Assembly (NCBI GenBank): GCA_016186425.1
Contig: JACPLR010000005.1
Coordinates: 27,312-59,311, forward strand
Direction: 5' to 3'
DNA length: 32,000 nt
Source of the DNA: Candidatus Pacearchaeota archaeon
Lineage (GTDB): Archaea > Nanobdellota > Nanobdellia > Pacearchaeales > GW2011-AR1
The position numbers and the translations under genes were made by a program. The stretch's first letter is position 1. Every line of letters begins with the position of its first letter. Positions 10,321 to 29,747 of this stretch are shown in pieces. The notes below the pieces were generated by a model that saw only the letters and a list, made by a program, of their open reading frames with translations, had not been told where the DNA came from and did no database searches.

Positions 10321-10336
10321 TTAATTAGGTTCATTT

Positions 10337-10687: not shown

Positions 10688-10708
10688 GAAATAATACTCT
10701 TAATAAAA

Positions 10709-10984
10709 CTACTGGTTTTCAAAGCTAACTCTTGATTCCAATTCTTTTTGTTTTTCTTTCAACTCCTCTATTTTTCTGTCAGTTTCTCCTATTATTAAGG
10801 AATAGGCAATAACATCTTCAACAGAATTTTTATCACTAACTCCTGCTGCAGATGCAATAGTTTTTGCCGGAAGCAAAATAGCTTCACTCATTACTTTAGG
10901 AAGTTTTTTTTGTTCTGGTTCTATTAAAGCATCTGTCATACTTTCCAGTACATCTATAGCTCCTTTTTCAACACCGCTAATCAT
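10709..10984 (-). CDS. hypothetical protein (91 aa) with coiled-coil tail
   Basis: ORF with C-terminal IEELKEKQKELESRV. Confidence 0.4.
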   Translation of the reverse strand: MISGVEKGAIDVLESMTDALIEPEQKKLPKVMSEAILLPAKTIASAAGVSDKNSVEDVIAYSLIIGETDRKIEELKEKQKELESRVSFENQ

Positions 10985-11121
10985 TCTTTGAGGTGCATCG
11001 ACAATATACTCAAATGTATTCTGCGGATTATTAAGTCTAAATTCACTTTCAAAATAATTTTTTTGCGATTTTAAGAATTATTTGGATAAATTTATAAAAT
11101 ATAAAAAGAAGTCATAAAAGC

Positions 11122-12165
11122 TTAATCCTTTGGAGTAGCTCTCACTAATAAATATTTTTCTGATTTAACAAAATCAAATTCTTCTTTAAATGCAACACAA
11201 TCGCACCTACACACCGTCTTTTCTCTTTTCCAGCCATTTTTTTTTCTTATAGTAAAAATACCTATATTTCTTCTATCTTGCTCTCCCAATTCAAGTTTAT
11301 CAAACCAATCCTCTAAAAAATAGTAATCTCCACCAAACTCTTTAGAAACCCGTTGTTGTTTAGCAGGAGTTTCGCGACGATAGGAATCAACAGGCTCATT
11401 AGGAAAATTAAGAAGCCTATAATTTCTACAAGGAGAGCTTTGATAAAGTATATATACGCTAGTACGAAACTTATCAGGATTAGAATCATTATACTCTTTT
11501 TTTTGATCAAGATAAAAAAATGATGAATTATTAAGAAATCCATTTAATCTGCCAATAATTGAGGCTACAGGAACTTTCTTTTCTTTTGAGAATGTGAGAA
11601 TATCTTGGTTTGAAACATGATCTAAATCCAATTCTCTAATTGTATTATCTGGCAAAATTAAGTTATTTGCAAAAACATCACAATAATTTTCATCATTTCT
11701 CAGACTATGTGTAATTTTTTTTCTTGCATTATGAATTCCACTATATGAAAGGTCCCTTAATAATTCTTGAGCATATAAAGCCTGTTTTAAATAATGCCCA
11801 AATTCATGGGCAATTGTAAAAGCCCCACCACCAGTTCTTAAAATATCAGTTGCTATTGAAATCTCCATCTTTCTAGGCTTAGATTCAGAAGCACCAATAG
11901 AACCATATACTAAACCATTATCCTCTTCAACAAATTCAATTTCTAAATAACCAAGTAATTTCTTTAATAATCCAACATTAAATTCCTTTCCTTGTGAAAC
12001 AAGTCTTGCCAATTCTCCTGCAGCCGGAAAAGGATCAATACTAAGCTGAGATAAAAAAGGAAAAACATGATAGCAAGGGGGGGCGTGCCTAAAATGGTTT
12101 AAAGATCTTAGACTAAACTTAAAACCATTTTTCGCTTCTATCTCAACTAATTTTCTTAATCCCAT
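11122..12165 (-). CDS. ImmA/IrrE-like zinc metallopeptidase (HEXXH) with a large C-terminal extension
   Basis: The motif FTIAHEFGHYLKQ is typical of the ImmA/IrrE (DUF955) family. The C-terminal ~200 aa are unassigned and contain CRCDC. Confidence 0.55.
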   Translation of the reverse strand: MGLRKLVEIEAKNGFKFSLRSLNHFRHAPPCYHVFPFLSQLSIDPFPAAGELARLVSQGKEFNVGLLKKLLGYLEIEFVEEDNGLVYGSIGASESKPRKMEISIATDILRTGGGAFTIAHEFGHYLKQALYAQELLRDLSYSGIHNARKKITHSLRNDENYCDVFANNLILPDNTIRELDLDHVSNQDILTFSKEKKVPVASIIGRLNGFLNNSSFFYLDQKKEYNDSNPDKFRTSVYILYQSSPCRNYRLLNFPNEPVDSYRRETPAKQQRVSKEFGGDYYFLEDWFDKLELGEQDRRNIGIFTIRKKNGWKREKTVCRCDCVAFKEEFDFVKSEKYLLVRATPKD

Positions 12166-12205
12166 AAAAATTAATTTAGAATTATACTTTTTAAGAATTA
12201 TTATA

Positions 12206-14395
12206 CTACTGATTCTCCGCCAATCCTTTCCTGTTTCTGATTTTTCTTACAACTTCACTTTGTAATTCAGTTGGCATTTTTTCAAATGACTGATCTTCTA
12301 AACTTGAAACTCCTCTACCTTCTGTTGCAGACCTTAAGTCGCTGCTCCATCCCAACATTTCAGCTACAGGCAGTTTTGCAGTTACTTTAACTCCAACTTC
12401 GTCCTGCTGAACGTCAATTAACTGTCCCCTCTTGCTTGAAACTAATTTTGTAACAGTGCTCATGTATTCTGAAGGCGCTTCAATTAAGTGTACTTGCAAC
12501 GGCTCAAAAAGAGAAATTCCCGCATCTCTCATAGCGCTTGAAATAGAATCTCTTATTGCAGGATAAACCTGTGCAGGCCCACGATGAATTGCATCTTCAT
12601 GAAGTTTTATATCAGCAAGCCTTAGTTTCATTTTCATGCATGGCTCTCTTGCTAATGGTCCAGCATCAATGACCTGCTCAAAAGCATCTAAAATCAAGTC
12701 AATTACCTCAATCATATGTACTTCACCTCTTGTATCATCAACAAAAACACATCCCTTGTAAATATCTCTGACATTTCTTATCTCATCATTTGGAATTCCT
12801 AACTCAGATAATTTCTTGAACATTGTATCATCTCTTTTCTTATATCTTCTCTCAGATATTTCTCCTTTCTTAATTGCATCATAAACTTCATCTTCTAAAG
12901 GCTCAACAGTTATGAAAAAGGAATTATGTTTATTTGGAGATTTACCTTCCTGAACTTTTGATTTTCTTACAACAGTCTCTCTGTAAACAACAATCGGAGC
13001 AGAGGTTTTTATCTCCAGTCCTTTTTCAGTCACTATTCTATTTTCAATAATTTCTAAATGCAGTTCTCCCATTCCTGAAACTAAATTTTCTCCTGTTTCC
13101 TCATTAATTTCAACCTTAAGGCTTGGGTCTTCTTTTACAACTTTTCTCAAAACTTCCACAAGCTTTGGAAGATCAACCATTTTCTTCGGCTCAATAGCTT
13201 TTGTAATAACTGGCTCAAAAATATGTTTGATTTCTTCAAAAGGTGTTTCAGGTTTTATTGTAATTGTTTCTCCAACATCCCCGACAATTCCTGCAATTGC
13301 AAGAACATTTCCTGCAGGAATATGTTCTACTTGTTCTGGCTTAATTCCGTTGTAAACTAAAACTTGCTGAACTCTTTGATTCTTTTTTTCATTATTAAGA
13401 TAAACTTCCATTCCTGGTTCCAAGCTTCCTGAAAATAATCTTCCTGCTGAAATTTCTTTTCCAGATCTTGGATCAATAACAATTCTTGTAATTATAAATG
13501 CTAATTCTCCTTTTGGATCGCAGTTAACAAGGCTTTTTCCAAACTCGCTTTCAAGATCTCCATGCCAGATTTTTGGAATTCTGTATTTCTGCGCTTCAAT
13601 CGGGTTTGGAAGATGCTTGATTGTCATGTCCAAAATAACTTCAAATAAAGGCGCATTTTTCCATGTCCATTCTTTCCTTTGTTCTTCATCCATGCTATAC
13701 AATTCAAAAATATTTTTAAAAGTAACTCCTTTCTTTTTCATAAAAGGAAGAGACAATGCCCAATTATCTCTGGCACTTCCAAAAGCAACACTTCCCTCAT
13801 TAATATCCACCTGCCATTTTTCCTTGTATTCTGGCTCTGCAATTCTCTCAATTAATTTATTAAAATCTTTGTAAATCTTGATAAATCTCTCCTGCATTTG
13901 TTCAGGAGTCATTTTCAGCTCTTTAATCAGCCTGTCAACTTTATTAATAAATAAAATTGGCTTTACTCTTTCTCTTAAAGCTTGTTTCAGAACAGTTTCT
14001 GTCTGAGGCATGATTCCTTCGCTTGCACAAACTAAAACAATCGTGCCATCAATAGCACGCATTGCACGAGTTACATTTCCAGAAAAATCTACATGCCCCG
14101 GAGTGTCAATTAAATTAATCAAGTATTCCTGGCCGTGAAAATCATGAACCATTGAAACATTTGCAGCATCAACAGTCATTAATCTTTCCTGTTCATCTGA
14201 ATGCTGCCATGTTGCCATTCCAGCCTCTAAATCCCCGGCAGATTTTGCAGCCATCATTCCTGCTGCAGCAAGCAAATTATCTGTGAAGGCCGTTTTACCG
14301 TGATGTATATGTGCACTGGTTGCTATATTTCTGATAGTTTCCTGGTTATTAGTCAGTCTTTCAATTTTCTCAACTTTTTTTTCTTCTTGTGCCAT
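12206..14395 (-). CDS. fusA: translation elongation factor aEF-2
   Basis: AHIHHGKT, DTPGHVDF, NKVDR GTPase motifs. The diphthamide-site context HEDAIHRGPAQV is present. 729 aa. Confidence 0.95.
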   Translation of the reverse strand: MAQEEKKVEKIERLTNNQETIRNIATSAHIHHGKTAFTDNLLAAAGMMAAKSAGDLEAGMATWQHSDEQERLMTVDAANVSMVHDFHGQEYLINLIDTPGHVDFSGNVTRAMRAIDGTIVLVCASEGIMPQTETVLKQALRERVKPILFINKVDRLIKELKMTPEQMQERFIKIYKDFNKLIERIAEPEYKEKWQVDINEGSVAFGSARDNWALSLPFMKKKGVTFKNIFELYSMDEEQRKEWTWKNAPLFEVILDMTIKHLPNPIEAQKYRIPKIWHGDLESEFGKSLVNCDPKGELAFIITRIVIDPRSGKEISAGRLFSGSLEPGMEVYLNNEKKNQRVQQVLVYNGIKPEQVEHIPAGNVLAIAGIVGDVGETITIKPETPFEEIKHIFEPVITKAIEPKKMVDLPKLVEVLRKVVKEDPSLKVEINEETGENLVSGMGELHLEIIENRIVTEKGLEIKTSAPIVVYRETVVRKSKVQEGKSPNKHNSFFITVEPLEDEVYDAIKKGEISERRYKKRDDTMFKKLSELGIPNDEIRNVRDIYKGCVFVDDTRGEVHMIEVIDLILDAFEQVIDAGPLAREPCMKMKLRLADIKLHEDAIHRGPAQVYPAIRDSISSAMRDAGISLFEPLQVHLIEAPSEYMSTVTKLVSSKRGQLIDVQQDEVGVKVTAKLPVAEMLGWSSDLRSATEGRGVSSLEDQSFEKMPTELQSEVVRKIRNRKGLAENQ

Positions 14396-14610
14396 TTTAT
14401 TTATTTCCTTTTTGTTTTATCTTTATTTTATTTAAAGGTTTTCAAAGGGTTTATTTTGTCTTTTTTATTTATTTTCTTTTTTAATATAAATAAGGTAATA
14501 TAATCAGATAACATAATATCAGTTTAATAGTTATAACTTAACTTAAGCCATCTATATTATAACTTGTAAGAAAAATAGTTTTTAAAGCTTTTTATTAGCT
14601 TTTTGTTGCC

Positions 14611-15105
14611 TTAATCTCCGTTATATTCATAAGAAAGTTGATTATATTCTTCAGTATCATATGAGCAAATGCCTTTATCATGCCATAATACAAATTTATC
14701 AATTCCAACATCTAATGCTAATTTACTGCAATGTGTGCAATAGGGCATTCCAGCTTTCAATATTTTATTTTCTTGGCTAAGCCTTATGAAATATAAACTA
14801 GAACCAGATACTTCATGTGGATTTTTAGAAACAGCGTCTATTATTGCTCTTTGTTCAGCATGGATACAGCATGACTTATCTCCAACTTTATCATGATAAG
14901 AGATTTTATCAATTAAACATCTTCTTTGTGATTCACGATTTCCAGGAGGGGAGTTAAACCCTCTTCCAATTGTTCTTCTGCTTTCACTATCAACAACAAT
15001 TGAACCGCATTTGCTTCTTAAACATGTTGAGAATTTTGCAACTTCAAGAGCTTGCATCATGAATTTTTCAGCCAAGTTTTTTTTCTTGCCGATTAGGTAT
15101 ATCAT
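14611..15105 (-). CDS. dCMP/cytidine deaminase family zinc enzyme
   Basis: CIHAEQRAI (H-A-E) and PYCTHCSKL (P-C-x-x-C) zinc-binding motifs. Confidence 0.8.
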   Translation of the reverse strand: MIYLIGKKKNLAEKFMMQALEVAKFSTCLRSKCGSIVVDSESRRTIGRGFNSPPGNRESQRRCLIDKISYHDKVGDKSCCIHAEQRAIIDAVSKNPHEVSGSSLYFIRLSQENKILKAGMPYCTHCSKLALDVGIDKFVLWHDKGICSYDTEEYNQLSYEYNGD

Positions 15106-15178
15106 AAAAATATAAAATTTAACTGAATTTAAAGATTTATATTCTTGTACATATTAAATTAGAATTAAACTAAAACTA

Positions 15179-15340
15179 GGAACTTACTCTAATAAATCAG
15201 GTAAAAATATGTTATGTTTTCAGAACAATTTTGAAAATACTGCAATAAACAAATTTAAAGGAAAGTTTGATAAAGAAAACCATTGGTTGTCTTTATTTTG
15301 AATCTCTACAATACTAAATTTCTTATTTAAAGAAATTTAA
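15179..15340 (+). repeat. composite intergenic repeat: X arm + 18-mer arm + hairpin element + Y module with terminal hairpin
   Basis: The 15179-15247 part matches 29748-29816. The 15258-15299 part matches 17858-17900. The 15296-15340 part matches 20503-20550 and 29798-29845. Confidence 0.8.
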
Positions 15341-15421
15341 CCTATAATATTTTAAAATATAACAATGTTAAACCACTTAAGTTTAATTATCAGTCCTATG
15401 TATTTTCAGATTAAGTAAATA

Positions 15422-15448
15422 AATTTAGTTGGACTATGGACACTAAAT
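15422..15448 (+). repeat. 26-nt module aatttagttggactatggacactaaa, inverted copy of 1011..1037
   Basis: Reverse complement of tttagtgtacatagtccaactaaaatt with one mismatch and one indel. Confidence 0.65.
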
Positions 15449-15467
15449 TAATATTAATTATATTTTT

Positions 15468-15974
15468 TCACAGCCAAGGATTCCTGGCAATATGGCACGA
15501 GTTTACGCCATGATTCTTGATATAATCCTGATGGTAATATTCAGCAGCATAAAATTCACTGGCTTTTGTTATTTCTGTAACAATTTTTTTAGGAATTTTC
15601 TTCTGAATTTTTCTCATTGAAACTTCTGCTAGTTTCTTTTGTTCAGCATTATGATAAAATATCACACTTCTATACTGAGATCCAACATCTGGCCACTGCA
15701 TATTCATTGTTGTAGGATCATGGCTTTTCCAGAATACTTCAAGTAGTTTTTCATAACTTATTTTTTCAGAATCAAAAATAACTTCAACAGCTTCGGCATG
15801 GCCTGATTTATCTGAACAAACTTGCTCATAAGTTGGATTTTTTGTTTTTCCTCCAGTATATCCAACTCTTGTTTTAACAACTCCTGGCAGCTTCTGAAAC
15901 TGGTATTCAAATCCCCAAAAGCAACCTCCTGCAAATGTTGCTTTTTGCAGCATTTGTTTATTGGAGTTTTTCAT
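15468..15974 (-). CDS. msrA: peptide methionine-S-sulfoxide reductase
   Basis: GGCFWG active-site motif, YHQDY near the C-terminus, 168 aa. Confidence 0.9.
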   Translation of the reverse strand: MKNSNKQMLQKATFAGGCFWGFEYQFQKLPGVVKTRVGYTGGKTKNPTYEQVCSDKSGHAEAVEVIFDSEKISYEKLLEVFWKSHDPTTMNMQWPDVGSQYRSVIFYHNAEQKKLAEVSMRKIQKKIPKKIVTEITKASEFYAAEYYHQDYIKNHGVNSCHIARNPWL

Positions 15975-16031
15975 AAATAATATAATAAGAAGGAGTATAA
16001 ATAAATTGTGAAAGAAGAAAGAGGATAATAA

Positions 16032-16715
16032 TTAATTAGCAGTCCATAACCTTTCTTTTAATTCAGCAAATTTATTTGAAGCTTCATTTTTTCCATCAAA
16101 TCTTGAGAGAAATAATTTTCTTATTTCTACTATGGAAATTTTACCATGAATATAATCATAATAAAGTCTTTCTCCAAGGCCATACCCTTGCTGATGAATA
16201 AATAATTCCTCAAAATCAAAATCTCGACCATATCTTCGCTCAAGATTCTTTCTAAATTCATTCTGATTTTTTTTATCTAGTCTTGAGAGATCGGGCCATT
16301 TAGTATATCCGCTAGTAACCTCTGATCCGGCAATTTTTGCACCAAAAAAACCAAGCATTTCAATTAAGATTTCAAGACAAATACTATTTTTCGTTATATT
16401 TGGTCTTTTATTATCAATTCCAGAAACTGAAAAATGGAAAAAATGTGCTGATTCTTCAGCAATTTCATGAGTTCTATAATCATTTAAAATAATGACCTTA
16501 AATTTTGGGATAAAATAACTTGCTTTAGATTTTTTTCTGTTTTCAAATTCCTCCCATAAATAGTCCGGCAATCCTGTGTCTTCAAAGTATATTGTTTTTC
16601 CAGTCCAAAATACTTCTGGATAGGAAGGTACATCTAATCCAATTTCATCAGAAATTTCATCAACAGACTCATGAACTTTAGATTCAATTTCATGCTGTCT
16701 TTCACACCATCTCAT
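16032..16715 (-). CDS. hypothetical protein (227 aa)
   Basis: ORF with ordinary composition. Contains HEIAEESAHFFH, which is not a canonical HEXXH. No family recognised. Confidence 0.45.
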   Translation of the reverse strand: MRWCERQHEIESKVHESVDEISDEIGLDVPSYPEVFWTGKTIYFEDTGLPDYLWEEFENRKKSKASYFIPKFKVIILNDYRTHEIAEESAHFFHFSVSGIDNKRPNITKNSICLEILIEMLGFFGAKIAGSEVTSGYTKWPDLSRLDKKNQNEFRKNLERRYGRDFDFEELFIHQQGYGLGERLYYDYIHGKISIVEIRKLFLSRFDGKNEASNKFAELKERLWTAN

Positions 16716-16776
16716 TAATTAATTTAATAATCCGGGATTAATAAACATTTATGGGATATGAATTACTTTTTATTAA

Positions 16777-17412
16777 TTATCTCGCCCCGTCAGCCTGCTT
16801 TTCAAGGTCATTCTTCTTTGAATATGCAAAACTATCTCCGGAGCTGTTTGCAGTTGTAATTATTTCTTCAGCAAGTGTTTGAGAGAAATGTTTTTTCTTG
16901 TTAAATGCCTTGTCTTGTGCGCCATGAACAATGTTTCTTATGGCAAGAGAAACTCTTCTATGCGGAGAGCAATCAACAGCTTGCGGGTATCTTGCTCCCC
17001 CATACTGAATCATTGTAACTTCATCTCTTGGTGATCCTTTTTCAACAGCATTAACTAAAACCTGTATAGGATTTTGTTTTGTTTTTTCCTGGATTATTTT
17101 AAATGCTTCAAGAACAATGTCAGTATTTGAATTATATTTCCCGCTTGCCCAGCTAGTCATTACTTTGTGCTTTTTTCCTCTATGGCCAGGCACGGCAATA
17201 TAATTAATAAGTCTCTCAATGATATTCACTTTGGTTTTTCCAAATCTTTCTCTTATTTTTCCTCTTGATTTTATAACAAGTTTGTAATCGAGGTTAATCA
17301 CATTTTTGAGGCCTGGATCATTTACAATAACTTCGTTTATGTCATATAAATCAAATATTTTCAATTCTTCTTTACTATTTTTTTCAGTTTGTTGTTCTGA
17401 TTTTTGTTCCAT
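16777..17412 (-). CDS. rps7: 30S ribosomal protein uS7
   Basis: IIERLINYIAVPGH ... QYGGARYPQAVDCSPHRRVSLAIRNI is typical of archaeal S7/S5e. Confidence 0.9.
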   Translation of the reverse strand: MEQKSEQQTEKNSKEELKIFDLYDINEVIVNDPGLKNVINLDYKLVIKSRGKIRERFGKTKVNIIERLINYIAVPGHRGKKHKVMTSWASGKYNSNTDIVLEAFKIIQEKTKQNPIQVLVNAVEKGSPRDEVTMIQYGGARYPQAVDCSPHRRVSLAIRNIVHGAQDKAFNKKKHFSQTLAEEIITTANSSGDSFAYSKKNDLEKQADGAR

Positions 17413-17419
17413 TTTAATA

Positions 17420-17584
17420 TTAATCTTTTGTATTATTGTTTAATAATCTTTGGTGATCTTCAAATTCTTCTGCCCTTACCATTGCTTTTTCTTCTTTTCT
17501 GCCATTATAAGATATTATTTTACGTTCAATATATGGTTTAAATGCTGTTTCATATTCATGAGTAATTTCTCTGATATGTCTCAT
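17420..17584 (-). CDS. possible small ORF (54 aa) between rps12 and rps7
   Basis: Hand translation gives MRHIREITHEYETAFKPYIERKIISYNGRKEEKAMVRAEEFEDHQRLLNNNTKD. Its ATG lies 1 nt after the stop of 17586..17825, and its stop lies 7 nt before the rps7 ATG. Confidence 0.3.
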   Translation of the reverse strand: MRHIREITHEYETAFKPYIERKIISYNGRKEEKAMVRAEEFEDHQRLLNNNTKD

Positions 17585-17585
17585 T

Positions 17586-17825
17586 TTAATTTCTTGATTT
17601 TTTATATCTTATTTCATTTAAAACATTTGCTAAATATCCTATAAAGTATCTTTTAATCATCTCTCTATCTTCACCGCTGCTAATCATAATATGTCTAATA
17701 TAAGTCCCACAAGGAGGCTCTATACCTCCATAATTAAAAGATAAATTTGCTAGACTATCATATTCACTTGGCCTTCTAGTAGCTATTGTTCTATTTCTTA
17801 AATTTGGTCTTCCTTGTTTTTCCAT
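17586..17825 (-). CDS. hypothetical small protein (79 aa) between rps12 and rps7
   Basis: ORF track, no family recognised. Translationally coupled layout with the 54-aa ORF. Confidence 0.35.
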   Translation of the reverse strand: MEKQGRPNLRNRTIATRRPSEYDSLANLSFNYGGIEPPCGTYIRHIMISSGEDREMIKRYFIGYLANVLNEIRYKKSRN

Positions 17826-17857
17826 TTTTATATTTTTTATTTATTTGATTCATTTAA

Positions 17858-17900
17858 AAGGAAAGTTTGATAAAGAAAACCTTTGGTTGTCTTTATTTTT
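17858..17900 (-). repeat. stop-codon-abutting hairpin element (RNA sense: AUAAAGACAACC-AAA-GGUUUUCUUUAU followed by CAAACUUUCCUU)
   Basis: 12-bp stem with one conserved C.U mismatch at 17870-17896, 2 nt downstream of the rps12 stop (17899-17901). Near-identical copy at 15258-15299. Confidence 0.75.
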
Positions 17901-18321
17901 ATCTTCTTCCCTTCTCTATCTTGCCCTTAACCAATAATCTTAATGGCTGGTCATTAACTTTAATAACCTGAAACCTAACTCCAGGAATATCTCCTTTTGT
18001 TCTTCCTTGTTTTCCGCCAATTCTTTCAATTACAACTTCATCATGCTCGTCAATAAACCTTTGTGCAAGGTTTCCTGGGATAAATGCAGTCACTGTCTTA
18101 GCATTTTTAGTAAGCTGAACTTTGCAGCACTTTCTCATTGCAGAGTTTGGTTGTTTTGCTTCTTTCTGCACTTTTTCTATAACTAATCCTTTTGCCTGGC
18201 TTGCTCCCTCTAAAGGATCTGCCTTTGCGTAAAGATTAAGCATTCTTGACTTGTATTTGTGCTCTCTCCATCTAAATTTCTTGTTTTTCTTTATAACTTT
18301 TCTAGCATTCATTAAGCCCAT
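17899..18321 (-). CDS. rps12: 30S ribosomal protein uS12
   Basis: [14 protein letters not shown] ... [14 protein letters not shown] is typical of archaeal S12/S23e. Confidence 0.93.
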
Positions 18322-18385
18322 AAATCTACAGAATTGAGGATGGTTTTTAAATCTTTAGTTTTTATTTATCGATAATATTAATCAA

Positions 18386-18417
18386 TTGTAACTAATATAT
18401 TTGAAAATACTGCAATA
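18386..18417 (+). repeat. short copy of the repeat family (ttgtaact + exact 18-mer tttgaaaatactgcaata, X arm missing)
   Basis: Compared with 29745-29816, the internal X arm appears to be deleted. Confidence 0.6.
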
Positions 18418-18464
18418 TTCTTACATAATTTATAATAGGTCATAAGTTATGTTAATAAATAAAT

Positions 18465-18614
18465 TAGTAGCTTAAGACGTATAAACCAGGTAAAAGTATG
18501 GCATGACTTCAGAAAAAGGAAAGGTAGTGTAGGAAAACCTTGGTTTTCAAACATAGCGGAGGTTTTTATTTTGAATCTATAACCTACTAAATTTTTCTAT
18601 GTAAAAAATTTAAA
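18465..18614 (+). repeat. composite repeat copy: X arm + palindrome gaaaacc-tt-ggttttc + ggaggtttttat + Y module
   Basis: Aligned by eye to 15179-15340. Confidence 0.7.
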
Positions 18615-18663
18615 ATAGTTTATTAGTTATTAAAGGTAAATTATTAATTTAATTTAAGATAAT

Positions 18664-18730
18664 CAGTAACTTGCTCATTAAAATTAGGTAGAGATGTGGA
18701 ATGATTAAAGAACTTTTTGAAATCACATAC
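18664..18730 (+). repeat. diverged copy of the repeat family (cagtaacttgctcattaaaattaggtagagatgtggaatgattaaagaactttttgaaatcacatac)
   Basis: Aligned by eye to 29748-29816. Confidence 0.6.
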
Positions 18731-18988
18731 TTTTTTAAGTAATCTATTAAATTAATTATAAAACTTAGTAATTTATTTTTATATTAGTTATTTTTCTAGT
18801 ATTTATATAATATATTCCCCAATATATATTTAAAATAATATATTTTAAACTGCTATATTTTTGTTTTCACTTATTTTATGCAACAAAATATAACTCAAAT
18901 GAAAATATATTTTTATGTCTATAAGTGTTTAAATATAAGTATTTCTGGAAAATGACAGCAATAAAGATAAAATATTCATCAAATAAAA

Positions 18989-20422
18989 ATGATAACAGAC
19001 AGGGCAAAAAAATATATTTCAGGAGGATTAGCTCCTTTGTTAATTTATACTTTATCTGGTTGCGCGACTTTTAGAAATTTTGGCAATGAATTTAAATCAT
19101 TCAGAACTGCAGCAGAAGACCCGGTTCATGAGGTTTTTAGAAATGATGAAAATAAAAATTTAGAGCCTCCAGCAGTGAATGAGGCGACTCAAAAACTCCA
19201 TAATGATGAATCAATGCACGCAATTGCTCATCCATATGTAATCGCAAATAATAATAGGGCATATTTTAAAGGAGAAGTTCCAGAAATAAACAATGGAACA
19301 TTTGCAATACCTTCTATTAATGCCACTTATATTGATTTAGATGGGAATAACGACGGCAAGGGCGATGTTTTAATTTCATATCGCTGCAGAAATGCTGCTC
19401 CAGATATTGCAGCTATTCTTGCTAAATACCTCCCGCCAGCTCCCGAAGTTGATATAACTCCTTATCTTTCTCAAAATATGCTGTTATTTCGGGGACAGGA
19501 TGTTAAATTCGGAGAAAATTTTGGCTTAATTTCAAAATTAATTAATAATTTCGATATAGATCCTAAACAAATAAGAATAAGGTTAAAAATAGTGGAGTAT
19601 TTTAATGATAATACCTATGACAGGGATATGGCCTTGAAAATTTTGAAAAATGGTATGAGTGCTTTTAACTTATTATTGCCAAGCAACCCCCAGGGCAATC
19701 CTTTAACAACTGGAATTTCTGTTGATCCATTCATCAACAAAGATAGGAACGGAGATTTTACAATCTGGGGAAGAGCGCCTAACAAATGGACATATGAGGG
19801 GGCAATAAAATTCCTTGACAGCCATGGAAGAACAGAAACACTGTCAGATACAGATGTTGTTGTTTCAAATGGAACAACTGCAGAATTTAGAAATGTTAAT
19901 GCAGTGCCATATCAGCAAACTTCTTTAACTCCTGCAGCAGCAATTGTTATAGGAACACAATACCGGGAAGTCGGCCCGCAATTAAAATTATCCCCCTTCA
20001 CAAATGAAAAAGGTTTTACAACAATAAAATTGCTTGAAGCAAAATCAGGAGAATCAATTGCCTTAGTAGGCAAGGAACAAATACCTGTGTTTAGGGAAGC
20101 AAATCTTACATCTGAATTTTGTTTGCGAAATGGAACAACATATCTTATAGGAACATCAACAAACACCAGATATAAATCTGTTAATAGGGGCATTCCTGGA
20201 TTGAATAAAATTCCTTTGGTTAGGGGTGCTACAACATCAAGAGAAATTGAGAAAAATACTTCTGAACTGCTTTATTTCATGGAAGTTTTTGATATAGAGA
20301 GACAAGATTCTGTTGGAATGCAGGAAAGAATACAAGAGCCTTCAATTGCAGAATTAAACTCTAATCCAGTTAAGAAAGAAAAAAGTGAAAATAAAGGATT
20401 TTTCAAAAGGCTAAAAAGATAG
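18989..20422 (+). CDS. secretin-domain protein with lipoprotein-type signal peptide (477 aa)
   Basis: The N-terminus LLIYTLSGC is lipobox-like. The C-terminal half matches recalled secretin (GspD/PilQ/pIV) hallmarks. These are QIRIRLKIVEYFNDNTYDRDMAL, LSDTDVVVSNGTTAEFRNVNAVPY, YREVGPQLKLSPF, LRNGTTYLIGTS and NRGIPGLNKIPLVRG...SELLYFMEV. Confidence 0.55.
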   Translation: MITDRAKKYISGGLAPLLIYTLSGCATFRNFGNEFKSFRTAAEDPVHEVFRNDENKNLEPPAVNEATQKLHNDESMHAIAHPYVIANNNRAYFKGEVPEINNGTFAIPSINATYIDLDGNNDGKGDVLISYRCRNAAPDIAAILAKYLPPAPEVDITPYLSQNMLLFRGQDVKFGENFGLISKLINNFDIDPKQIRIRLKIVEYFNDNTYDRDMALKILKNGMSAFNLLLPSNPQGNPLTTGISVDPFINKDRNGDFTIWGRAPNKWTYEGAIKFLDSHGRTETLSDTDVVVSNGTTAEFRNVNAVPYQQTSLTPAAAIVIGTQYREVGPQLKLSPFTNEKGFTTIKLLEAKSGESIALVGKEQIPVFREANLTSEFCLRNGTTYLIGTSTNTRYKSVNRGIPGLNKIPLVRGATTSREIEKNTSELLYFMEVFDIERQDSVGMQERIQEPSIAELNSNPVKKEKSENKGFFKRLKR

Positions 20423-20453
20423 TGAAATTCCATCTTTAAACTATAAAGACTAA

Positions 20454-20550
20454 CAGTTCAGACTAATAAATCACGTAAAGTTAATGTCATATTTTCAAAA
20501 TTATTCTTGAATCTCTACCATATTAAATTTCTCATTCGAGAGAAATTTAA
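20454..20550 (+). repeat. repeat family copy: X arm + Y module with hairpin aaatttctc-attcgag-agaaattt
   Basis: Aligned by eye to 15179-15340 and 29748-29845. Confidence 0.7.
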
Positions 20551-20675
20551 AATAATCTATAGTTGTTTAAATTGAACTCTTTAATATTAATGGAGTGATT
20601 TTAATTTGTATGCCTGATTTTTAAAACAAAATCGATAGAACAAGCTATTATTTTACCTTTTAATCTAAACTCTTT

Positions 20676-21119
20676 TTATTTCTCGTTCTCCTGCAGTTTC
20701 TTTATGACTTTTGCAGTTATATCTGTATATTTATCTGACCCCTTATCGCCTTTATCAACTACAATGTCATATCCGCCTTTTGCGGCAGATTCTACCAAGG
20801 CCTTATTAACACTAGTTAGCAATTGGCTTAAAACTCTATCTTTTCTAGTGTCATTTTCTTTCAATTTCGTTAATTCTTTGTAATACTTGCTCTCAGTTAA
20901 TGCCTTGCTATATTCTATATATGCCGGGTTTGCATATTTCGCATCTTTTTTTTCAACTCCATAACGAGTTACTGCTTCAGCTTTCTGCATATTGTCAAAT
21001 TGTACTCTTGGCCTATAACTTCCTTCGTCAAAAGAAACGCTTGGATAAATTCCAAAAACAGAACCAATTCCTACCGCGCTAGCAGTTAGAATATTTGCCA
21101 GCGATTTTCTTGATTTCAT
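20676..21119 (-). CDS. Skp/OmpH-like periplasmic chaperone homologue with signal peptide (147 aa)
   Basis: The N-terminal hydrophobic signal is LANILTASAVGIGSVFG. The C-terminus RVLSQLLTSVNKALVESAAKGGYDIVVDKGDKGSDKYTDITAKVIKKL follows the recalled OmpH/Skp C-terminal pattern (..AV..vA...g.DlVvD....y.....DIT..Vlk.l). Confidence 0.5.
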   Translation of the reverse strand: MKSRKSLANILTASAVGIGSVFGIYPSVSFDEGSYRPRVQFDNMQKAEAVTRYGVEKKDAKYANPAYIEYSKALTESKYYKELTKLKENDTRKDRVLSQLLTSVNKALVESAAKGGYDIVVDKGDKGSDKYTDITAKVIKKLQENEK

Positions 21120-21246
21120 TTATTTTCTTCTTTTTTATGTAAAAACTAATGGTTTTCTAATAAAAAATTAGGTAGTATATATTAATAACTATAAATAATT
21201 TTCCCACCACTTAAAAGTTATATCATTAAGAAGAATCTAGCATTTA

Positions 21247-21286
21247 AAGGAGGGGTTGATAAGGATAAACCCTTAGTTTCTTTTAT
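21247..21286 (-). repeat. degenerate copy of the stop-proximal element, 2 nt downstream of the nusA stop
   Basis: aaggaggggttgataaggataaacccttagtttcttttat aligns with aaggaaagtttgataaagaaaacc.ttggttgtctttat. The stem is poorly preserved. Confidence 0.4.
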
Positions 21287-21288
21287 AA

Positions 21289-21705
21289 TTATATTATCCT
21301 TACCTCTTTTCCAAAATAATCTTTTATTATTTTCCTTATTTCTTCGAGTCTTGACTTATTTCTGCCGATTAACATTGCCTTGTTCTGCTGTCCTGCATTA
21401 ATAATAAGTTGATTGCCATTTATTTCAACATTTTTGATTTGGGCAGGATAAATTATTGTTGAAATAAATTTTTCTGCATCACCTATGTCTTTTGGCACAA
21501 GAACAACTTTAACCTTTCTGTTAAGTATCTCGCCTATTTTTTTTATGTTTTTTCCATTATCTCCGATTGCCATTGCAAGCTTATTTTCAGGAACAGAAAA
21601 TATTATTGTATAATTATAAATAAAGCAATGTTTTGGAGTTATTCCGCTTATTCTTGAGAATAAATTTATATATCTCATCACTCTCATGTCTATGGTTTTT
21701 ATCAT
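21289..21705 (-). CDS. nusA: archaeal NusA-like transcription termination/antitermination protein (two KH domains)
   Basis: Size of 138 aa, KH-like GxxG segments (IGDNGKNIKKIGE, IGRNKSRLEEIRK), and position between rpoA and rps12. Confidence 0.82.
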   Translation of the reverse strand: MIKTIDMRVMRYINLFSRISGITPKHCFIYNYTIIFSVPENKLAMAIGDNGKNIKKIGEILNRKVKVVLVPKDIGDAEKFISTIIYPAQIKNVEINGNQLIINAGQQNKAMLIGRNKSRLEEIRKIIKDYFGKEVRII

Positions 21706-21970: not shown

Positions 21971-24900
21971 TTACTTTTCCTTTTTCAGTGTCTTCCTGTC
22001 TTTTTCCCTCACTAAAGGCCCTGTAATTTTTACCATTAATCCAGGTAATCCAGTGCCAACAGGAACGGGCTGGTTAAGAATTATATTCTCAATGACACTT
22101 AACAATTCATCTTTTCCACCCTTAATTGTTGCATTAACAAAATGTTTTATAGGTGTTTCAAAACTTGCCTTAGCTAAGATACTGCTTTTTCTTGCAATTA
22201 TTCCCATTCTTGTCATCCCTCTTATCTCTCCATCAATTGTCATTGCATCAGCAACAAGCTTTAAGTGCCTTTCATCAATATCTAATCCCTGTGAACCAAG
22301 AACTTTTCTTATCTCATTCATTATAACCTGTCTTGCAGATTCAATTCCAAAAACATTTGCCATTTCATAAATATCATTTGTAATTGTTCTTTCAGGAGCA
22401 ACTCCCTTCACTTTTATTATCTCGGCAAGATTTGAGCCAGCTGTGAGTATTACATACCCTCTTTCTCTTTTAACAATTAAAACCTGCTTTATTCCTTTTA
22501 CTCCGGAAATTATGCTTTCCTTTAATTTTTCTTTAAGTTTGTATATTTCTTTAAAGCCAAGATCTGGAATACTTAAGATTATTGAATCATTTTTCACGCT
22601 TATTTTATATCCTTTTATTGCAATTTTTTCAGCAACAGTATTTATCGACATATGGGTGTGCCTTATTGCCTTGTTGTCTATTATAAATTCAATTTTTTTG
22701 TCAGAGAAATTTATTTTTGCCTCTGATAATATTTCTTTCAGCTTGGCTTCTTTTATTTTCTCTGCAAGAACCTTTGCGTCTTTTTCATCATTAAAATCTT
22801 TGTCTAAGTGAATTTCCATTGCAGGTGTTGACGGCATCTTTCTTGCATCAAATATTTCAATAAGCCGTGGAAGACCTAAAGTAACCTGCATTTCCTGAAC
22901 TCCGGCAAAATGAAATACATTCAAAACCATTTGTGTTGACGGCTCCCCAAAACTCTGTGCAGTAACAATTCCAATTGCTTCTCCAGGAGAAACTTCATTG
23001 TCAAAATGAGCTCCAGCAACATCAATTCCATCATCTCCATATTTAAATTGAATTATCTGGCCAACAGCATCTCTAACTGTCCCATCATACTCCACTCTCA
23101 AGTCCTGCAAAGCATTAGCAAGTCTTCTATATAAGTATCCTGATTTAGGTGTTCTTAGTGCAGTATCCATTAACCCATCTCTTCCTGAAATAGCATCAAA
23201 GAAAAATTCCTGCGGCTCCAACCCATTCATATAGGATGAATATACAAATCCATGAGCTTTTGGGGAAAGGTCATGCTGCTTGAAAGACGAAAGTGTTCTT
23301 TCATTATAGCCAAAATTAATCCTCTGAGACCACAAAGATTTCTGGCCGACAGAACACGCAATTTGAGTAATATTAAGGATATTTCCTCCAGCTCCAGACA
23401 TAATCATGTGATTTACAGGATTGTCTTCTGGAAATTCTGTTTTTACAGCCTTGCCTATTTTAGTTCTTATCTCATTTAATGTTTGAAGTATTTTAATTTC
23501 CCTTGATTCGTCAAGAGTTTTCCCAGGAATAATTTCAAGAGTTTCGTTATTGTAAGCATCAATTATTTCTTTTGTTTTTTCTTCACCGTCTTTTATTATG
23601 TCATAAGTTATTTTTTTTGTTTTTTCATTAACATTAATATCTTCAAGGGAAATAGTAAACCCTCTTCTTGAAAGATAATTTGTTCCAAGTGTAAAAGCTT
23701 TTTTTATTGCATCTATTGTTTCTTTTCTGCCAAGCTCCTTATCAACTTCTTTTGTGATTTTTTCATTTTCAACACCAAAAGTATATTCATGTGTTAAGTC
23801 TTTCTTTTCAATTTCTTGAGAAAGCGATTTGCTTATTGGAGGCAATATTTCCAAGAAAATATCCTTGCCATTAAAGGTTTTCTTGTCTTGTTTTATAATC
23901 ATTCCTGCATTAAAAAGAAGCTGTTGTGCTTCTGCTTTGTTTACATTGCTTAACCCTAAAAGATAATTCCCTGTGACAGCATCTGTAATTGTTCCTATTA
24001 ATGATGTATTATTTTTTGGGCTCATTAAGTTCTTGCTTACATCTAATAAAATTCTTGCTTCAGCCCTCGCTTCTTCAGTCTGAGGCACATGAACATTCAT
24101 TTCATCTCCATCAAAATCAGCATTATAGGGAAATACAACCGCCGGATGCAATCTAAATGTTCTGTAAGGAAGAACTTTTACATAATGCGCCATCAAGCTT
24201 CCTCTATGAAGTGAGGGATGTCGGTTAAATAATACAATATCTCCGTCCTGTAAATGCCTTTCAACAAAATATCCCGGCTTTAATTCTTCAATTATTTCTT
24301 TTTTAAGTTCAGGGGATATTTTCTTTCTTCTTCCATCAGGCCTTATAATATAATTTGCCCCCGGATAATGCTCTGACATTATCAGTTTTTTTAGATAATC
24401 AATATTAAGCGTTGTAACCTCTTCATTAACAGTAAGAACTTCTGCAATTTCATAAGGAACTCCAACTTCATTTATTTGTAATGAAGGATCTGGAGAAATA
24501 ACTGTTCTTGACGAGAAATTAACTCTTTTTCCAGCAAGATTATGCCTTATTCTTCCTTCTTTTCCTTTAATTCTTTCAGTAATTGTTTTTAGTGGCTGCC
24601 CGCTTCTGTGCCTGGCAGGTGGAATTCTTGATATAGTATTGTCAAAAAATGTTGTTACATGATATTGAAGCAAATCCCATAAATCATCAATAATAACTTC
24701 CGGAGCTCCTGCATTTAAATTTTCCCAAAGTCTTTGATTTGATCTTATTATATCTCCAAGCTTGTGAGTTAAGTCATCTTCGCTTCTCTCTCCAGATTCT
24801 AAAGTAATGCTTGGCCTTACAGTTACTGGAGGAACAAGCAAAACAGTAAGGATTCCCCATTCTGGCCTGAATGTTTCTGGATTAACTCCAATTAACCTGC

Positions 24901-25417
24901 AGTCATCATCTGTAATTTTTTCTAAAATTGCCCTTATTTCAGGAGGGAATATTCTTTTCTTTCCAAGCATGAATGATGTTGGTTTTTCAATCTTAATTTT
25001 TTCCTGAACAGTTTGGCAGTAATGGCATTTTTTAGCATCCTTTGATTTTTTCATTCTCTGTGCAGGGCTTAATTTCTTTATATTTTCCTCATCTAAAAGT
25101 ATTCTTCCGCAATTATTGCAAAAACTTCTTAAAAATGTGTAAACAATTGGAACATATTTTACATGCACAACAGGCCTTGCAAACTCAATGCTTCCTGGAT
25201 GCCCAAGGCATTCTTTTAATCTTCCTCCGCATGTTCTGCATTTTACTCCAGGATCAATAGCGCCAAGCCTCAAGTCCATTAATCCTCCATCTACCGGATA
25301 TCCATCCATATCATAAAGTTCTGGAGTGATTATCTTGGCACATGATATTTTTTTAATCTTCTCCGGGCTAAGCAGGCCAAATTTCAATGCTTTTATTTGT
25401 TTTTTTACAATTATCAT
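21971..25417 (-). CDS. rpoA: DNA-directed RNA polymerase largest subunit, A' and A'' fused in one 1148-aa ORF
   Basis: N-terminal zinc motif CRTCGGRLKECLGH, catalytic NADFDGDEMNVH, and bridge-helix region GRDGLMDTALRTPKSGYLYRRL. Then YGDDGIDVAGAHFDNEVSPGEAIGIVTAQSFGEPSTQMVLNVFHFAG (A''-type trigger loop) follows in the same frame. Confidence 0.93.
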   Translation of the reverse strand: MIIVKKQIKALKFGLLSPEKIKKISCAKIITPELYDMDGYPVDGGLMDLRLGAIDPGVKCRTCGGRLKECLGHPGSIEFARPVVHVKYVPIVYTFLRSFCNNCGRILLDEENIKKLSPAQRMKKSKDAKKCHYCQTVQEKIKIEKPTSFMLGKKRIFPPEIRAILEKITDDDCRLIGVNPETFRPEWGILTVLLVPPVTVRPSITLESGERSEDDLTHKLGDIIRSNQRLWENLNAGAPEVIIDDLWDLLQYHVTTFFDNTISRIPPARHRSGQPLKTITERIKGKEGRIRHNLAGKRVNFSSRTVISPDPSLQINEVGVPYEIAEVLTVNEEVTTLNIDYLKKLIMSEHYPGANYIIRPDGRRKKISPELKKEIIEELKPGYFVERHLQDGDIVLFNRHPSLHRGSLMAHYVKVLPYRTFRLHPAVVFPYNADFDGDEMNVHVPQTEEARAEARILLDVSKNLMSPKNNTSLIGTITDAVTGNYLLGLSNVNKAEAQQLLFNAGMIIKQDKKTFNGKDIFLEILPPISKSLSQEIEKKDLTHEYTFGVENEKITKEVDKELGRKETIDAIKKAFTLGTNYLSRRGFTISLEDINVNEKTKKITYDIIKDGEEKTKEIIDAYNNETLEIIPGKTLDESREIKILQTLNEIRTKIGKAVKTEFPEDNPVNHMIMSGAGGNILNITQIACSVGQKSLWSQRINFGYNERTLSSFKQHDLSPKAHGFVYSSYMNGLEPQEFFFDAISGRDGLMDTALRTPKSGYLYRRLANALQDLRVEYDGTVRDAVGQIIQFKYGDDGIDVAGAHFDNEVSPGEAIGIVTAQSFGEPSTQMVLNVFHFAGVQEMQVTLGLPRLIEIFDARKMPSTPAMEIHLDKDFNDEKDAKVLAEKIKEAKLKEILSEAKINFSDKKIEFIIDNKAIRHTHMSINTVAEKIAIKGYKISVKNDSIILSIPDLGFKEIYKLKEKLKESIISGVKGIKQVLIVKRERGYVILTAGSNLAEIIKVKGVAPERTITNDIYEMANVFGIESARQVIMNEIRKVLGSQGLDIDERHLKLVADAMTIDGEIRGMTRMGIIARKSSILAKASFETPIKHFVNATIKGGKDELLSVIENIILNQPVPVGTGLPGLMVKITGPLVREKDRKTLKKEK

Positions 25418-25950: not shown

Positions 25951-26117
25951 TATTCCTCATATTTGTTTTTTAATTCAAATCCCGTCGCTATATGTAATCC
26001 AAGTAATTCCTCCGCAAGTAATTTAAATGCATATGAAACTTCAACATCTTCAATCTCTGTTGAATTGCATACAGGGCAGTAAGTTTTATTCCTTAAAGTA
26101 TCTTTAACTCCCAGAGC
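25950..26117 (-). pseudogene. rpoB: stranded in-frame C-terminal 55 codons of rpoB
   Basis: Hand translation after the TGA gives ALGVKDTLRNKTYCPVCNSTEIEDVEVSYAFKLLAEELLGLHIATGFELKNKYEE*. It contains the second CxxC and the conserved YAFKLL..EL motif of the RpoB C-terminus. It has no start codon of its own. Confidence 0.8.
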
Positions 26118-26160
26118 TCAGTAAGTTTTATTCCTTAAAGTATCTTTAACTCCCAGAGCT
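26077..26160. repeat. perfect 42-bp tandem duplication (2 x cagtaagttttattccttaaagtatctttaactcccagagct)
   Basis: The two copies, 26077-26118 and 26119-26160, are identical base for base. Confidence 0.97.
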
Positions 26161-29494: not shown

Positions 29495-29747
29495 ATTTAC
29501 AAATAATAGTTAATTTATTTAGGTTTAGGTTAGTTTAATAAGGGCATTTACAACTTTCCAATACTAAACATTATCAAAAATTGGTTTTTAAACCTTTCTA
29601 TTTTTTTGGAAAGGTTAAAATTCTTATTATAAGAATAGTGTTATTAATTAGTTAGGAAAATAAAAAGATTATAGATTAGTGGATTTTAGATATTTGTATA
29701 TAGCTTATAAAATATTTTAATCTCTAGATGATAATTAATAAAAATTT

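Follow-up and report, generated by a model that had tools for sequence, protein, structure and literature searches.

A liposecretin gene and a miniature Skp/OmpH-type gene, probably a native envelope module, in the rps12-nusA interval of Pacearchaeota

A 32-kb stretch of DNA (the window; all coordinates are window-relative unless a locus is named) was analysed from a Candidatus Pacearchaeota archaeon (GTDB Nanobdellota; Nanobdellia; Pacearchaeales; GW2011-AR1), corresponding to positions 27,312-59,311 of the forward strand of contig JACPLR010000005.1 (assembly GCA_016186425.1). Between the genes for ribosomal protein S12 and NusA the window carries two genes, one encoding a secretin of 477 aa with a lipoprotein signal (a liposecretin) and the other a protein of 147 aa, predicted to be secreted, that is related to the chaperone Skp/OmpH. 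The latter was termed mini-Skp on account of helical arms that reach roughly half the length of those in Skp. Probably the two genes make up an envelope module that is native to Pacearchaeota (DPANN), inherited vertically and of bacterial origin, and that would provide a gated channel together with a dedicated chaperone. Textbooks treat secretins and Skp as hallmarks of the envelope of diderm bacteria, and the lack of a secretin is part of how archaeal type IV filament systems are defined.

The larger gene (18989-20422, + strand) was identified with sequence profiles and structure comparison. Pfam Secretin (PF00263) matched aa 276-431 with 67.5 bits (gathering cut-off 27.5; E=1.4e-18), covering 162 of the 169 model positions (2-163), and the same domain was present in 21 of 21 full homologs. 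The original prediction had proposed a secretin on the basis of short peptide blocks, all of which were located in the protein: LIYTLSGC (aa 18-25), QIRIRLKIVEYFNDNTYDRDMAL (aa 194-216), LSDTDVVVSNGTTAEFRNVNAVPY (aa 285-308), YREVGPQLKLSPF (aa 325-337), LRNGTTYLIGTS (aa 379-390), GIPGLNKIPLVRG (aa 401-413) and ELLYFMEV (aa 426-433). The Skp-like tail quoted for the partner protein was likewise found (aa 100-142 of 147). Judged from the sequences, the agreement of peptide blocks and profiles with secretin and OmpH is far beyond chance. The NCBIfam models for PilQ, GspD, MshL and SctC also matched the secretin (E about 1e-14 to 1e-5). Since the scores were far under the equivalog cut-offs (PilQ TIGR02515, 51.2 bits vs 284; GspD TIGR02517, 39.5 vs 351; MshL, 24.8 vs 250; SctC, 24.3 vs 238), the protein was not assigned to any named secretin subfamily.

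An alignment of 20 secretin homologs (38-87% identical; alignment A1) was used as a profile against the PDB and matched only solved secretins (E 1e-15 to 5e-6; PilQ, GspD, pIV, RcpA and others), the best being Neisseria meningitidis PilQ (9sh1; 1.5e-15) and Escherichia coli GspD (5wq7; 2.6e-14), with f1 pIV (7ofh) also matched. The alignment to PilQ and GspD begins in their last N domain. There, 'NTLIF...FD.P.KQIRVRLRIVE' of A1 aligns with 'NTLIV...LDVPAQQVMIEARIVE' of PilQ (GspD/PilQ-type match NTLIF..FD.P.KQIR vs NTLIV..LDVPAQQV), and from there the alignment extends through the secretin domain to the conserved C-terminal 'GIP-LNKIP' loop. Comparison of the AlphaFold2 (AF2) model with the PDB by Foldseek gave the same assignment: 40 of the 40 matches with E<=0.001 were secretins (PilQ, InvG, GspD, XcpQ, BfpB, pIV and RcpA; E 1e-13 to 5e-8, probability 1.00; 6w6m at 1.2e-13), with template modelling (TM) scores of about 0.3, and the next match followed at E~0.2. 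The proposed secretin was thus borne out by profile score and fold.

The domain architecture was derived from the alignment, the profile matches and the AF2 model with its predicted local distance difference test (pLDDT) values. The predicted signal peptide (aa 1-25; 18989-19063) consists of a basic n-region and a hydrophobic stretch (aa 9-19), followed by the lipobox L-S-G-C that closes with Cys25 (19061-19063). This cysteine is invariant among the 20 homologs, in agreement with the lipobox claimed at first reading, and no second hydrophobic segment was found in the whole 477-aa sequence. The following family-specific region (aa 26-110; 19064-19318) yielded no Pfam match and low pLDDT; it carries the conserved motifs HEVFR-DE-KN, NxRAY and INATY with residues E48, R51, N57, N88, R90 and Y92. 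AF2 secondary structure and profile alignment place a single N3-like (ring-building) domain at aa 111-192 (19319-19564), in which aa 126-188 form a predicted beta-alpha-beta-beta-alpha unit (strand 126-132, helix 137-147, strands 155-159 and 164-170, helix 171-188), with long beta hairpins after it. The secretin core as delimited by Pfam and PDB alignment (aa 193-436; 19565-20296) includes an indel-rich loop of low pLDDT (aa 224-265) and the C-terminal GIPGLNKIP loop. Conservation in A1 is densest in the C-terminal 250 residues, and the canonical inner-barrel and C-terminal secretin motifs are kept in the family. The tail (aa 437-477; 20297-20419) is charged, unaligned and length-variable among homologs, with pLDDT <50, and a recognisable pilotin-binding S domain was not found in it. 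Neither an N0 nor an AMIN domain was found in the secretin, and Pfam Secretin_N (PF03958) was unreported at E<=1. The protein was classified as a compact liposecretin because it is without N0/AMIN and without a second hydrophobic segment and has a variable charged tail in place of the S domain. The first gene encodes a self-contained liposecretin composed of a lipobox signal, a family-specific N-region, one putative N3-type domain and a complete secretin core. In one homolog (P0020; locus L014, 7538-8815) a twin-arginine motif, TRRDFLRR, is combined with the lipobox-like LLPAC.

The mini-Skp gene (20676-21119, - strand) was examined in the same way. Pfam OmpH (PF03938) matched aa 86-142, the 57 C-terminal aa only, with 29.6 bits (gathering cut-off 32.4; E=9.4e-7). 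A profile search returned about 30 homologs of 104-151 aa, of which 29 family members were aligned (alignment A4); 23 of the 29 matched OmpH at E<=0.01 (best 1.7e-7), and two homologs carry the JGI auto-annotation 'Skp family chaperone'. Against the PDB the family profile matched OmpH 9yjt (E=7e-4) and Skp 1u2m (E=0.04). The AF2 model has pLDDT 81-93 for aa 61-147, with strands 65-68 and 119-122 and helices 70-76, 78-85, 93-115 (23 residues) and 135-145. The best eight Foldseek matches were all Skp/OmpH, among them E. coli Skp (1sg2 and 1u2m), SkpA of the type IX secretion system (T9SS) and Caulobacter CC_1914; their E-values were weak (0.01-2). The ordered core of 1u2m_A superposed on the model with a TM-score of 0.71 and a root-mean-square deviation of 2.9 A. 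The helical part spans aa 70-115 (~45 residues), giving arms of about half the Skp length, and the long (~65 A) helical tentacles of Skp were not found in the model. Sub-threshold sequence scores together with a consistent, weakly scored fold match indicate that the protein is homologous to Skp. The Skp/OmpH relationship proposed originally therefore stands as homology by sequence and fold, qualified by the sub-threshold PF03938 score and by arms much shorter than those of Skp.

Export of mini-Skp was predicted from its N-terminal region (aa 1-49; 20973-21119), which has a hydrophobic segment (aa 7-25) and a conserved A-x-A (aa 47-49) and precedes the mature Skp-like domain (aa 50-147; 20679-20972) defined by AF2 model and Foldseek. 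The N-terminus is Sec-like in the window protein. Because the window subgroup has about 20 extra residues between the hydrophobic region and the conserved AxA, the hydrophobic segment may be an anchor and not be cleaved. Twin-arginine motifs (RRDFLKY, RRNFLSY) were present in at least 12 of the 29 homologs, two of which reached Pfam TAT_signal, which suggests twin-arginine translocation (Tat)-dependent export of module parts in some lineages. By these sequence criteria the second gene encodes a putative secreted holdase of miniature Skp/OmpH type, with predicted export by Sec here and by Tat in many relatives. In locus L010 the mini-Skp copy is truncated; this was regarded as assembly-specific, since L024, a near-identical secretin locus from another assembly, has a 144-codon open frame for mini-Skp. 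In the CG10 Pacearchaeota locus L011, a twin-arginine protein of 171 aa is encoded between S12 and the secretin (7506-8021, - strand). Its N-terminal part matched the mini-Skp family weakly, with an hhalign probability of 74%, and it may be a paralogous envelope chaperone.

The two genes are convergent, lie 253 bp apart and are the sole occupants of the interval between rps12 (17899-18321, - strand; Pfam E=3.8e-40) and the archaeal KH-only nusA (21289-21705, - strand; KH_2 and KH_5 domains). The interval measures 2967 bp. The original description of both open reading frames (ORFs), with their coordinates and strands, as the only genes in some 3 kb was correct, as was the statement that their composition resembles that of the surroundings (GC 0.31-0.36 vs 0.26-0.38 over the window). 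In NCBI both are entered as 'hypothetical protein' (secretin, HYW74_01135, identical protein on a 59-kb contig; partner, HYW74_01140). The intergenic region upstream of the secretin gene (667 bp; 18322-18988) contains repeat copies at 18382-18426, 18484-18516 and 18562-18624 in addition to AT-rich tandem repeats, and no family was found in it by Rfam scan. The convergent 3' spacer (20423-20675) contains a further copy (20436-20536). A scan for sigma-70 promoters and terminators was uninformative on this AT-rich archaeal DNA.

The host is clearly archaeal, as the original prediction had it. On the minus strand the window encodes an Rpb2-type RpoB, an unsplit Rpb1-type RpoA (1148 aa), a KH-only NusA (138 aa), S12, S7, EF-2 and EF-1alpha. 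The assignment was made because of the Rpb1/Rpb2-type RNA polymerase, EF-2, EF-1alpha, the KH-only NusA and an intron-containing tRNA.

The order S12, secretin (+), mini-Skp (-) and NusA is repeated in five further lineages: L001 (a 389-kb contig), L004/L005 (JGI; here NusA is preceded by two additional ORFs), L008 (RIFCSPHIGHO2), L010/L024 and L016/L017. The assemblies are independent (NCBI, JGI, ENA), and the secretins are 40-87% identical to the window protein. S12 is the neighbour in L001, L004, L008, L011 and L016, and NusA in L001, L004, L008, L010 and L016. L011 has the same order, with the 171-aa ORF between S12 and secretin, as far as its contig goes, which ends after mini-Skp and before any NusA. 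In L014 the pair is relocated beside ArgRS and still convergent. A hidden Markov model scan of the fetched loci placed mini-Skp directly downstream of the secretin in seven of the nine lineages with flanks.

The divergence of secretin and mini-Skp keeps pace with that of the flanking housekeeping genes. Identities to the window proteins, given as S12, NusA, secretin and mini-Skp, were 98, 87, 87 and 93% in L008, 89, 77, 51 and 37% in L004, 87, 70, 48 and 38% in L001, and 85, 65, 40 and 40% in L016. Ratios of nonsynonymous to synonymous substitutions (dN/dS) between window and L008 were 0.21 for the secretin (core 0.086; N-terminal region, the fastest-evolving part, 0.42) and 0.12 for mini-Skp, so that purifying selection acts on both. 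Collinearity between window and L008 runs straight through the segment, at 82-91% nucleotide identity. A recent exchange of the module between the two was considered on account of a synonymous divergence (dS) below that of S12 and NusA, yet rejected, as its nucleotide identity of 87.5% lies within the syntenic range. These data indicate that the module was gained before these Pacearchaeales lineages diverged and was then inherited vertically. Of the proposal that the segment was horizontally acquired and domesticated, the domestication is upheld by the purifying selection on both genes; a bacterial or phage donor was not identified.

Copies of an AT-rich intergenic repeat family were located at 1128-1186, 4307-4350, 5085-5260, 15118-15351, 17854-17899, 18382-18624, 20436-20551, 21243-21288, 29687-29845 and 30501-30607. 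The core reads ...CAGGTAAAAATATGGTATGxTTTCAAAAcaaTTTTGAAAATACTGCAATA... and a second module AAAGGAAAGTTTGATAAAGAAAACC. Most copies follow closely on the 3' side of a gene, with both orientations represented, and L008 has them dispersed over its sequence as well. For the best-preserved one (5150-5225) an imperfect hairpin of 28 bp was obtained (z=-3.8); the others are degenerate and their folding was not significant. No Rfam match was obtained for the family, which is possibly a REP/MITE-like (repetitive extragenic palindrome or miniature inverted-repeat transposable element) or terminator-associated element. Repeats are present at the sites named in the original prediction; their proposed role as boundaries of an insertion was rejected. 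Because they form a genome-wide intergenic element, they argue for the nativeness of the segment.

The distribution of the family was determined by searching the A1 profile over 1.84 billion representative proteins. The search returned 15,571 secretins, yet only 19 clusters (50% identity) with E<1e-30 and at least 220 bits; the next score was at most 114 bits. The nearest sequences outside the family were mostly unnamed metagenomic proteins. Five records were found in GTDB species-representative genomes, four under the title Pacearchaeota and a fifth that bears the label Paceibacterota but has archaeal gene content, and 241 million metagenome records contained ten loci only, from the same lineages. 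The Paceibacterota-labelled contig (L001/L009; GCA_035453125.1, DAOTCN010000001.1, 389 kb) is titled 'Candidatus Paceibacterota bacterium'; the genes of the L001 region (RpoH/Rpb5, Rpb1, Rpb2, EF-2, EF-1alpha, KH-only NusA) are archaeal, and the label is likely a taxonomic mislabel of an archaeal metagenome-assembled genome (MAG). Among the retrieved matches the nearest outside relatives were about 27% identical, and BLAST gave no clear sister group. Sampled bacterial secretins were about 25-28% identical at most, and the closest secretins in phage and plasmid collections 20-25%.

The best outgroup match was P0042, a secretin of 364 aa with the lipobox LTGC (L018, 5898-6992, + strand; GCA_053531595.1, JAIYQP010000050.1). 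Its context is archaeal (L13-L18e-RpoD-S11-S4-S13-DUF655-Rpb4-L21e, then the secretin). It is 24% identical to the window secretin and groups at 28-37% with short liposecretins including the 'GspD' of the planctomycete Anaerohalosphaera lusitana, and no Skp-like neighbour was found at locus L018. As P0042 represents a separate lineage in an archaeal cluster, at least two secretin lineages exist in archaea. A related short secretin, P0052 (L020), is encoded upstream of secF-secD. A literature search (secretin, PilQ or GspD with DPANN, Pacearchaeota or archaea) returned no description of archaeal secretin genes, and in a survey from 2026 that covers archaeal type IV filament systems, secretins come up for bacteria only. 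With its mini-Skp partner, the secretin was rated as a distinct subfamily resident in Archaea.

Partner machinery (cognate ATPase, platform, pilin or assembly genes of T2SS, T4P, Tad, type III or inovirus-type systems) was searched within 10 kb on either side of the pair in the window, L001, L004, L008, L010, L011, L014 and L016, and none was found. A weak LolA match in L004 (E=0.0065) was dismissed, as a slightly better GGACT match lies at the same place. The sole lineage with a HerA/Zot-like ATPase near a family secretin was L006 (ENA k141_73054, 10001-21347; the same region as L007, L026 and L027). Downstream of the secretin, this region encodes two coiled-coil proteins, a membrane protein of 396 aa and one of 136 aa, and then an ATPase of 689 aa, which matched DUF87/HerA (2.4e-8), Zot (4.8e-5, above cut-off) and the CedD-type DNA-translocating ATPase (1.4e-17, far below cut-off). 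Then come genes for a genuine CsrA and for two DUF4056 lipoproteins, and the beginning of a GspD-like secretin (1200 aa) that has N0 and Secretin_N domains. The gene content of this neighbourhood is the one hint at a substrate and points to translocation of DNA or of a filament. The contig may be archaeal or bacterial: it carries CsrA, the DUF4056 lipoproteins and the GspD-like secretin, yet its GC is 0.32 and the family secretin on it falls within the Pacearchaeota sequences.

Among known systems, the liposecretins of the HxcQ type are comparable in having their own N-terminal lipoprotein signal, no separate pilotin gene, no S domain, and N domain(s), of which the window protein has a putative one, followed by the core; the secretins BfpB and TcpC of type IVb pili are also liposecretins. 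In the part of PMC3230066 that cites Viarre 2009, HxcQ of Pseudomonas aeruginosa is described as piloting itself, with a lipid anchor of its own, to the outer membrane. Unlike these, the present protein occurs in an archaeal host without a known Lol pathway or outer membrane, has one putative N-type domain and no N0, carries the unique N-region HEVFR-DE-KN, is not part of an operon for a type II secretion system (T2SS) or type IV pilus (T4P), and is at most distantly identical (~25-28%) to sampled bacterial secretins. With PilQ and GspD it shares the best sequence and structure matches and the motif series through the inner barrel, including the C-terminal VP-L--IP loop; it differs in scoring far under their NCBIfam cut-offs, in being without AMIN, N0 and multiple N domains, and in having no PilMNOP or GspC-M nearby. 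The short planctomycete-type liposecretins and P0042 are likewise compact (~360-420 aa), with a lipobox and a single N domain, putative in the window protein, whereas P0042 at 24% identity is a separate lineage without a Skp-like neighbour. Secretins outside Bacteria are known from the mitochondrial T2SS GspD of some protists. This GspD and phage pIV resemble the window protein as secretin barrels in a non-bacterial or mobile context, pIV being similarly minimal with few N domains; they differ in that the outer membrane holding them descends from bacteria and that they work with cognate ATPase machinery, neither of which is known here.

Mini-Skp resembles E. coli Skp as a small protein with an export signal whose C-terminal GYD-VV-K-D...DIT core fits the OmpH profile and whose model superposes on the Skp body. 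It also resembles the SkpA of the T9SS translocon (8gl8) in being linked to a specific secretion pore. E. coli Skp has a mature length of about 141 aa and is a Sec substrate. Mini-Skp differs in its mature length of ~97 aa, its roughly halved tentacles, the sub-gathering Pfam score, the many twin-arginine signals and its occurrence in Archaea.

According to the reading preferred here, the secretin protomer would be exported and lipid-anchored at Cys25, and mini-Skp would act in the extracytoplasmic space as a dedicated chaperone of the secretin or of its cargo, in the former case holding the secretin assembly-competent. By analogy with solved secretins, the secretin might then oligomerise to a 12-15-mer, and the ring could form a wide, gated channel within the outermost envelope layer or at a cell-cell contact; candidate cargoes are folded proteins, DNA or a fibre resembling a type IV filament. 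Whether this would amount to a trans-envelope conduit is more doubtful. It would lead either across a second layer akin to an outer membrane, enclosing a sort of periplasm in which the chaperone of bacterial descent would serve (a diderm-type archaeal envelope put together from borrowed bacterial components), or through a pore in a partner cell at a symbiotic contact, and we regard such a conduit as somewhat unlikely. Several points weigh against the channel-and-chaperone reading as a whole. All genomes compared are MAGs, and no descriptions of a Pacearchaeota envelope or outer membrane were found in the literature. Genes for T4P, T2SS, the type III secretion system, Tad or filamentous-phage assembly were absent within 10 kb at the rps12-nusA loci and from the 32-kb window. 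Secretins mislocalised to the cytoplasmic membrane are toxic in bacteria (Psp response). The AF2 model of the secretin reached a moderate mean pLDDT of 57, with 70-80 in the N-like domain and the barrel strands. Mini-Skp scores under the Pfam gathering threshold and has shortened arms, its holdase capacity is uncertain, and two lineages (L002 type and L006 type) are without an adjacent mini-Skp.

A different use of the same barrel would be a host-directed pore: the secretin would be lipid-anchored in the archaeal membrane with its barrel inserted in the membrane of a partner, possibly a diderm outer membrane, as a conduit for uptake or exchange of metabolites or macromolecules, and mini-Skp would keep it insertion-competent until contact. 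According to a review (PMC6349945), most DPANN live as episymbionts and the 16S abundances of Pacearchaeota are correlated with bacterial communities, although a free-living state has been argued for some Pacearchaeota (PMC11537232) and no host is known. Cryo-electron tomography of ARM-1, which belongs to another DPANN lineage, revealed a secretin-like barrel in the envelope where the host nanotube docks (PMC11329633); no gene has been assigned to that barrel, which is 21 nm wide. Within the window secretin, variability is highest in the N-terminal linker (dN/dS 0.42) and the surface loop aa 224-265, as would be expected if these faced a partner, and no cognate inner-membrane machinery is encoded nearby (L001 and L004 loci). 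PulD and similar secretins can self-insert into lipid bilayers without help from BAM, the machinery for beta-barrel assembly, which would favour such insertion. Against this, anchor and barrel lie in the same membrane in known liposecretins (HxcQ, as cited in PMC3230066), and the host-directed pore is rated as rather unlikely. Very unlikely, in our view, is an origin as remnant or part of a mobile DNA-export or filamentous-virus-like system, with a pIV-like exit pore and a HerA/VirB4/Zot-type ATPase encoded elsewhere that would extrude or import DNA or a virion. The fold match to phage pIV and the L006 neighbourhood, in which the secretin precedes two coiled-coil proteins and the DUF87/HerA-, Zot- and CedD-matching ATPase, would fit such a system. 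L006 also carries CsrA on a contig that is archaeal or bacterial, however, and the window and five lineages share a fixed slot in the rpo/ribosomal-protein cluster that is without ATPase, coat, replication or integrase genes; moreover, the divergence tracks the flanking housekeeping genes, and phage and plasmid secretins are distant.

It is hardly probable that the ring has a non-channel role, as a structural element (S-layer or cell-wall anchor, scaffold), or is being lost, with the Skp-like protein a general chaperone that is adjacent by chance. The lack of recognisable substrate machinery nearby, the shortened mini-Skp arms, the truncated L010 copy and the two lineages with a secretin and no adjacent mini-Skp are compatible with it. 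They are opposed by the strong purifying selection on the core (dN/dS 0.086), the retained inner-barrel and C-terminal motifs, the convergent pairing that 7 of the 9 lineages keep, also where the genes have been relocated, and the 144-codon mini-Skp frame of L024, which makes the L010 truncation assembly-specific. An artefact, namely bacterial DNA mis-joined to an archaeal contig by chimerism or binning contamination, might be suspected since secretin and Skp are otherwise bacterial and NCBI lists one of the homologous genomes as 'Paceibacterota bacterium'. It is effectively refuted. The same gene order occurs in NCBI, JGI and ENA assemblies on contigs up to 389 kb and at 40-87% protein identity, the 'Paceibacterota' contig encodes archaeal RpoH/Rpb5, Rpb1, Rpb2, EF-2 and EF-1alpha, the local GC is typical, the genome's own repeats flank and separate the two genes, and window and L008 are collinear through the segment. 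Chimerism and contamination were ruled out by the synteny in independent assemblies and the L008 collinearity, in line with the original view that the segment is not chimeric. Synteny, co-divergence, dN/dS, collinearity and the genome's own repeats, taken together, exclude a chimera, a recent insertion, a prophage and a pseudogene.

The native module is vertically inherited and selectively kept within the most conserved archaeal gene cluster. This would imply that some DPANN have an envelope compartment that needs a channel and a chaperone, or that they use a bacterial pore anew, e.g. at cell contacts; the cell envelope or cell-contact apparatus may therefore differ from what is assumed for archaea. 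If a trans-envelope conduit exists, Archaea would have a first functional secretin, and the cell-cell channels of DPANN would become accessible through a gene. The pair is a concrete, testable set of genes for studying the exchange of material between ultrasmall DPANN cells and their partners and the make-up of their envelopes. A Tat-exported mini-Skp would be a new minimal form of the Skp chaperone. Database matches to PF00263 in archaea ought not to be written off as contaminants.

Further observations were made in the surrounding cluster. The genes rps7 and rps12 are separated by 486 bp in the window (17413-17898) and by 14 bp in L001. The gap contains small ORFs of 54 aa and 79 aa, the latter without a Pfam match, and about 230 bp of it (17603-17830) are without counterpart in L008. 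RNA polymerase subunit A is encoded by a single ORF of 1145-1167 aa with Rpb1 domains 1-5 in the window (21971-25417, - strand), L001 (12269-15706), L004 (13630-17070) and L010 (4376-7879); a split A'/A'' pair is usual in archaea. The L30e gene is absent between rpoA and nusA. A perfect 42-nt tandem duplication (26077-26160) crosses the 3' end of rpoB, whose ORF ends at its low-coordinate side, including the stop codon, at 26118, so that the coding sequence contains one copy and the second follows shortly downstream; the duplication is either real or an assembly artefact. A tRNA at 30050-30204 (+ strand) was detected with Rfam (56.5 bits) and missed by ARAGORN. BLAST showed its halves (30049-30090 and 30168-30216) to be contiguous in the 87%-identical L008, and the window tRNA therefore contains an insert of about 77 nt (intron) that is missing there. 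The hot-spring Pacearchaeota contig L002, which carries a family secretin, encodes an Rfam RT-16 RNA (1066-1205, + strand; 72.7 bits), which we take to be a reverse-transcriptase-associated RNA motif.

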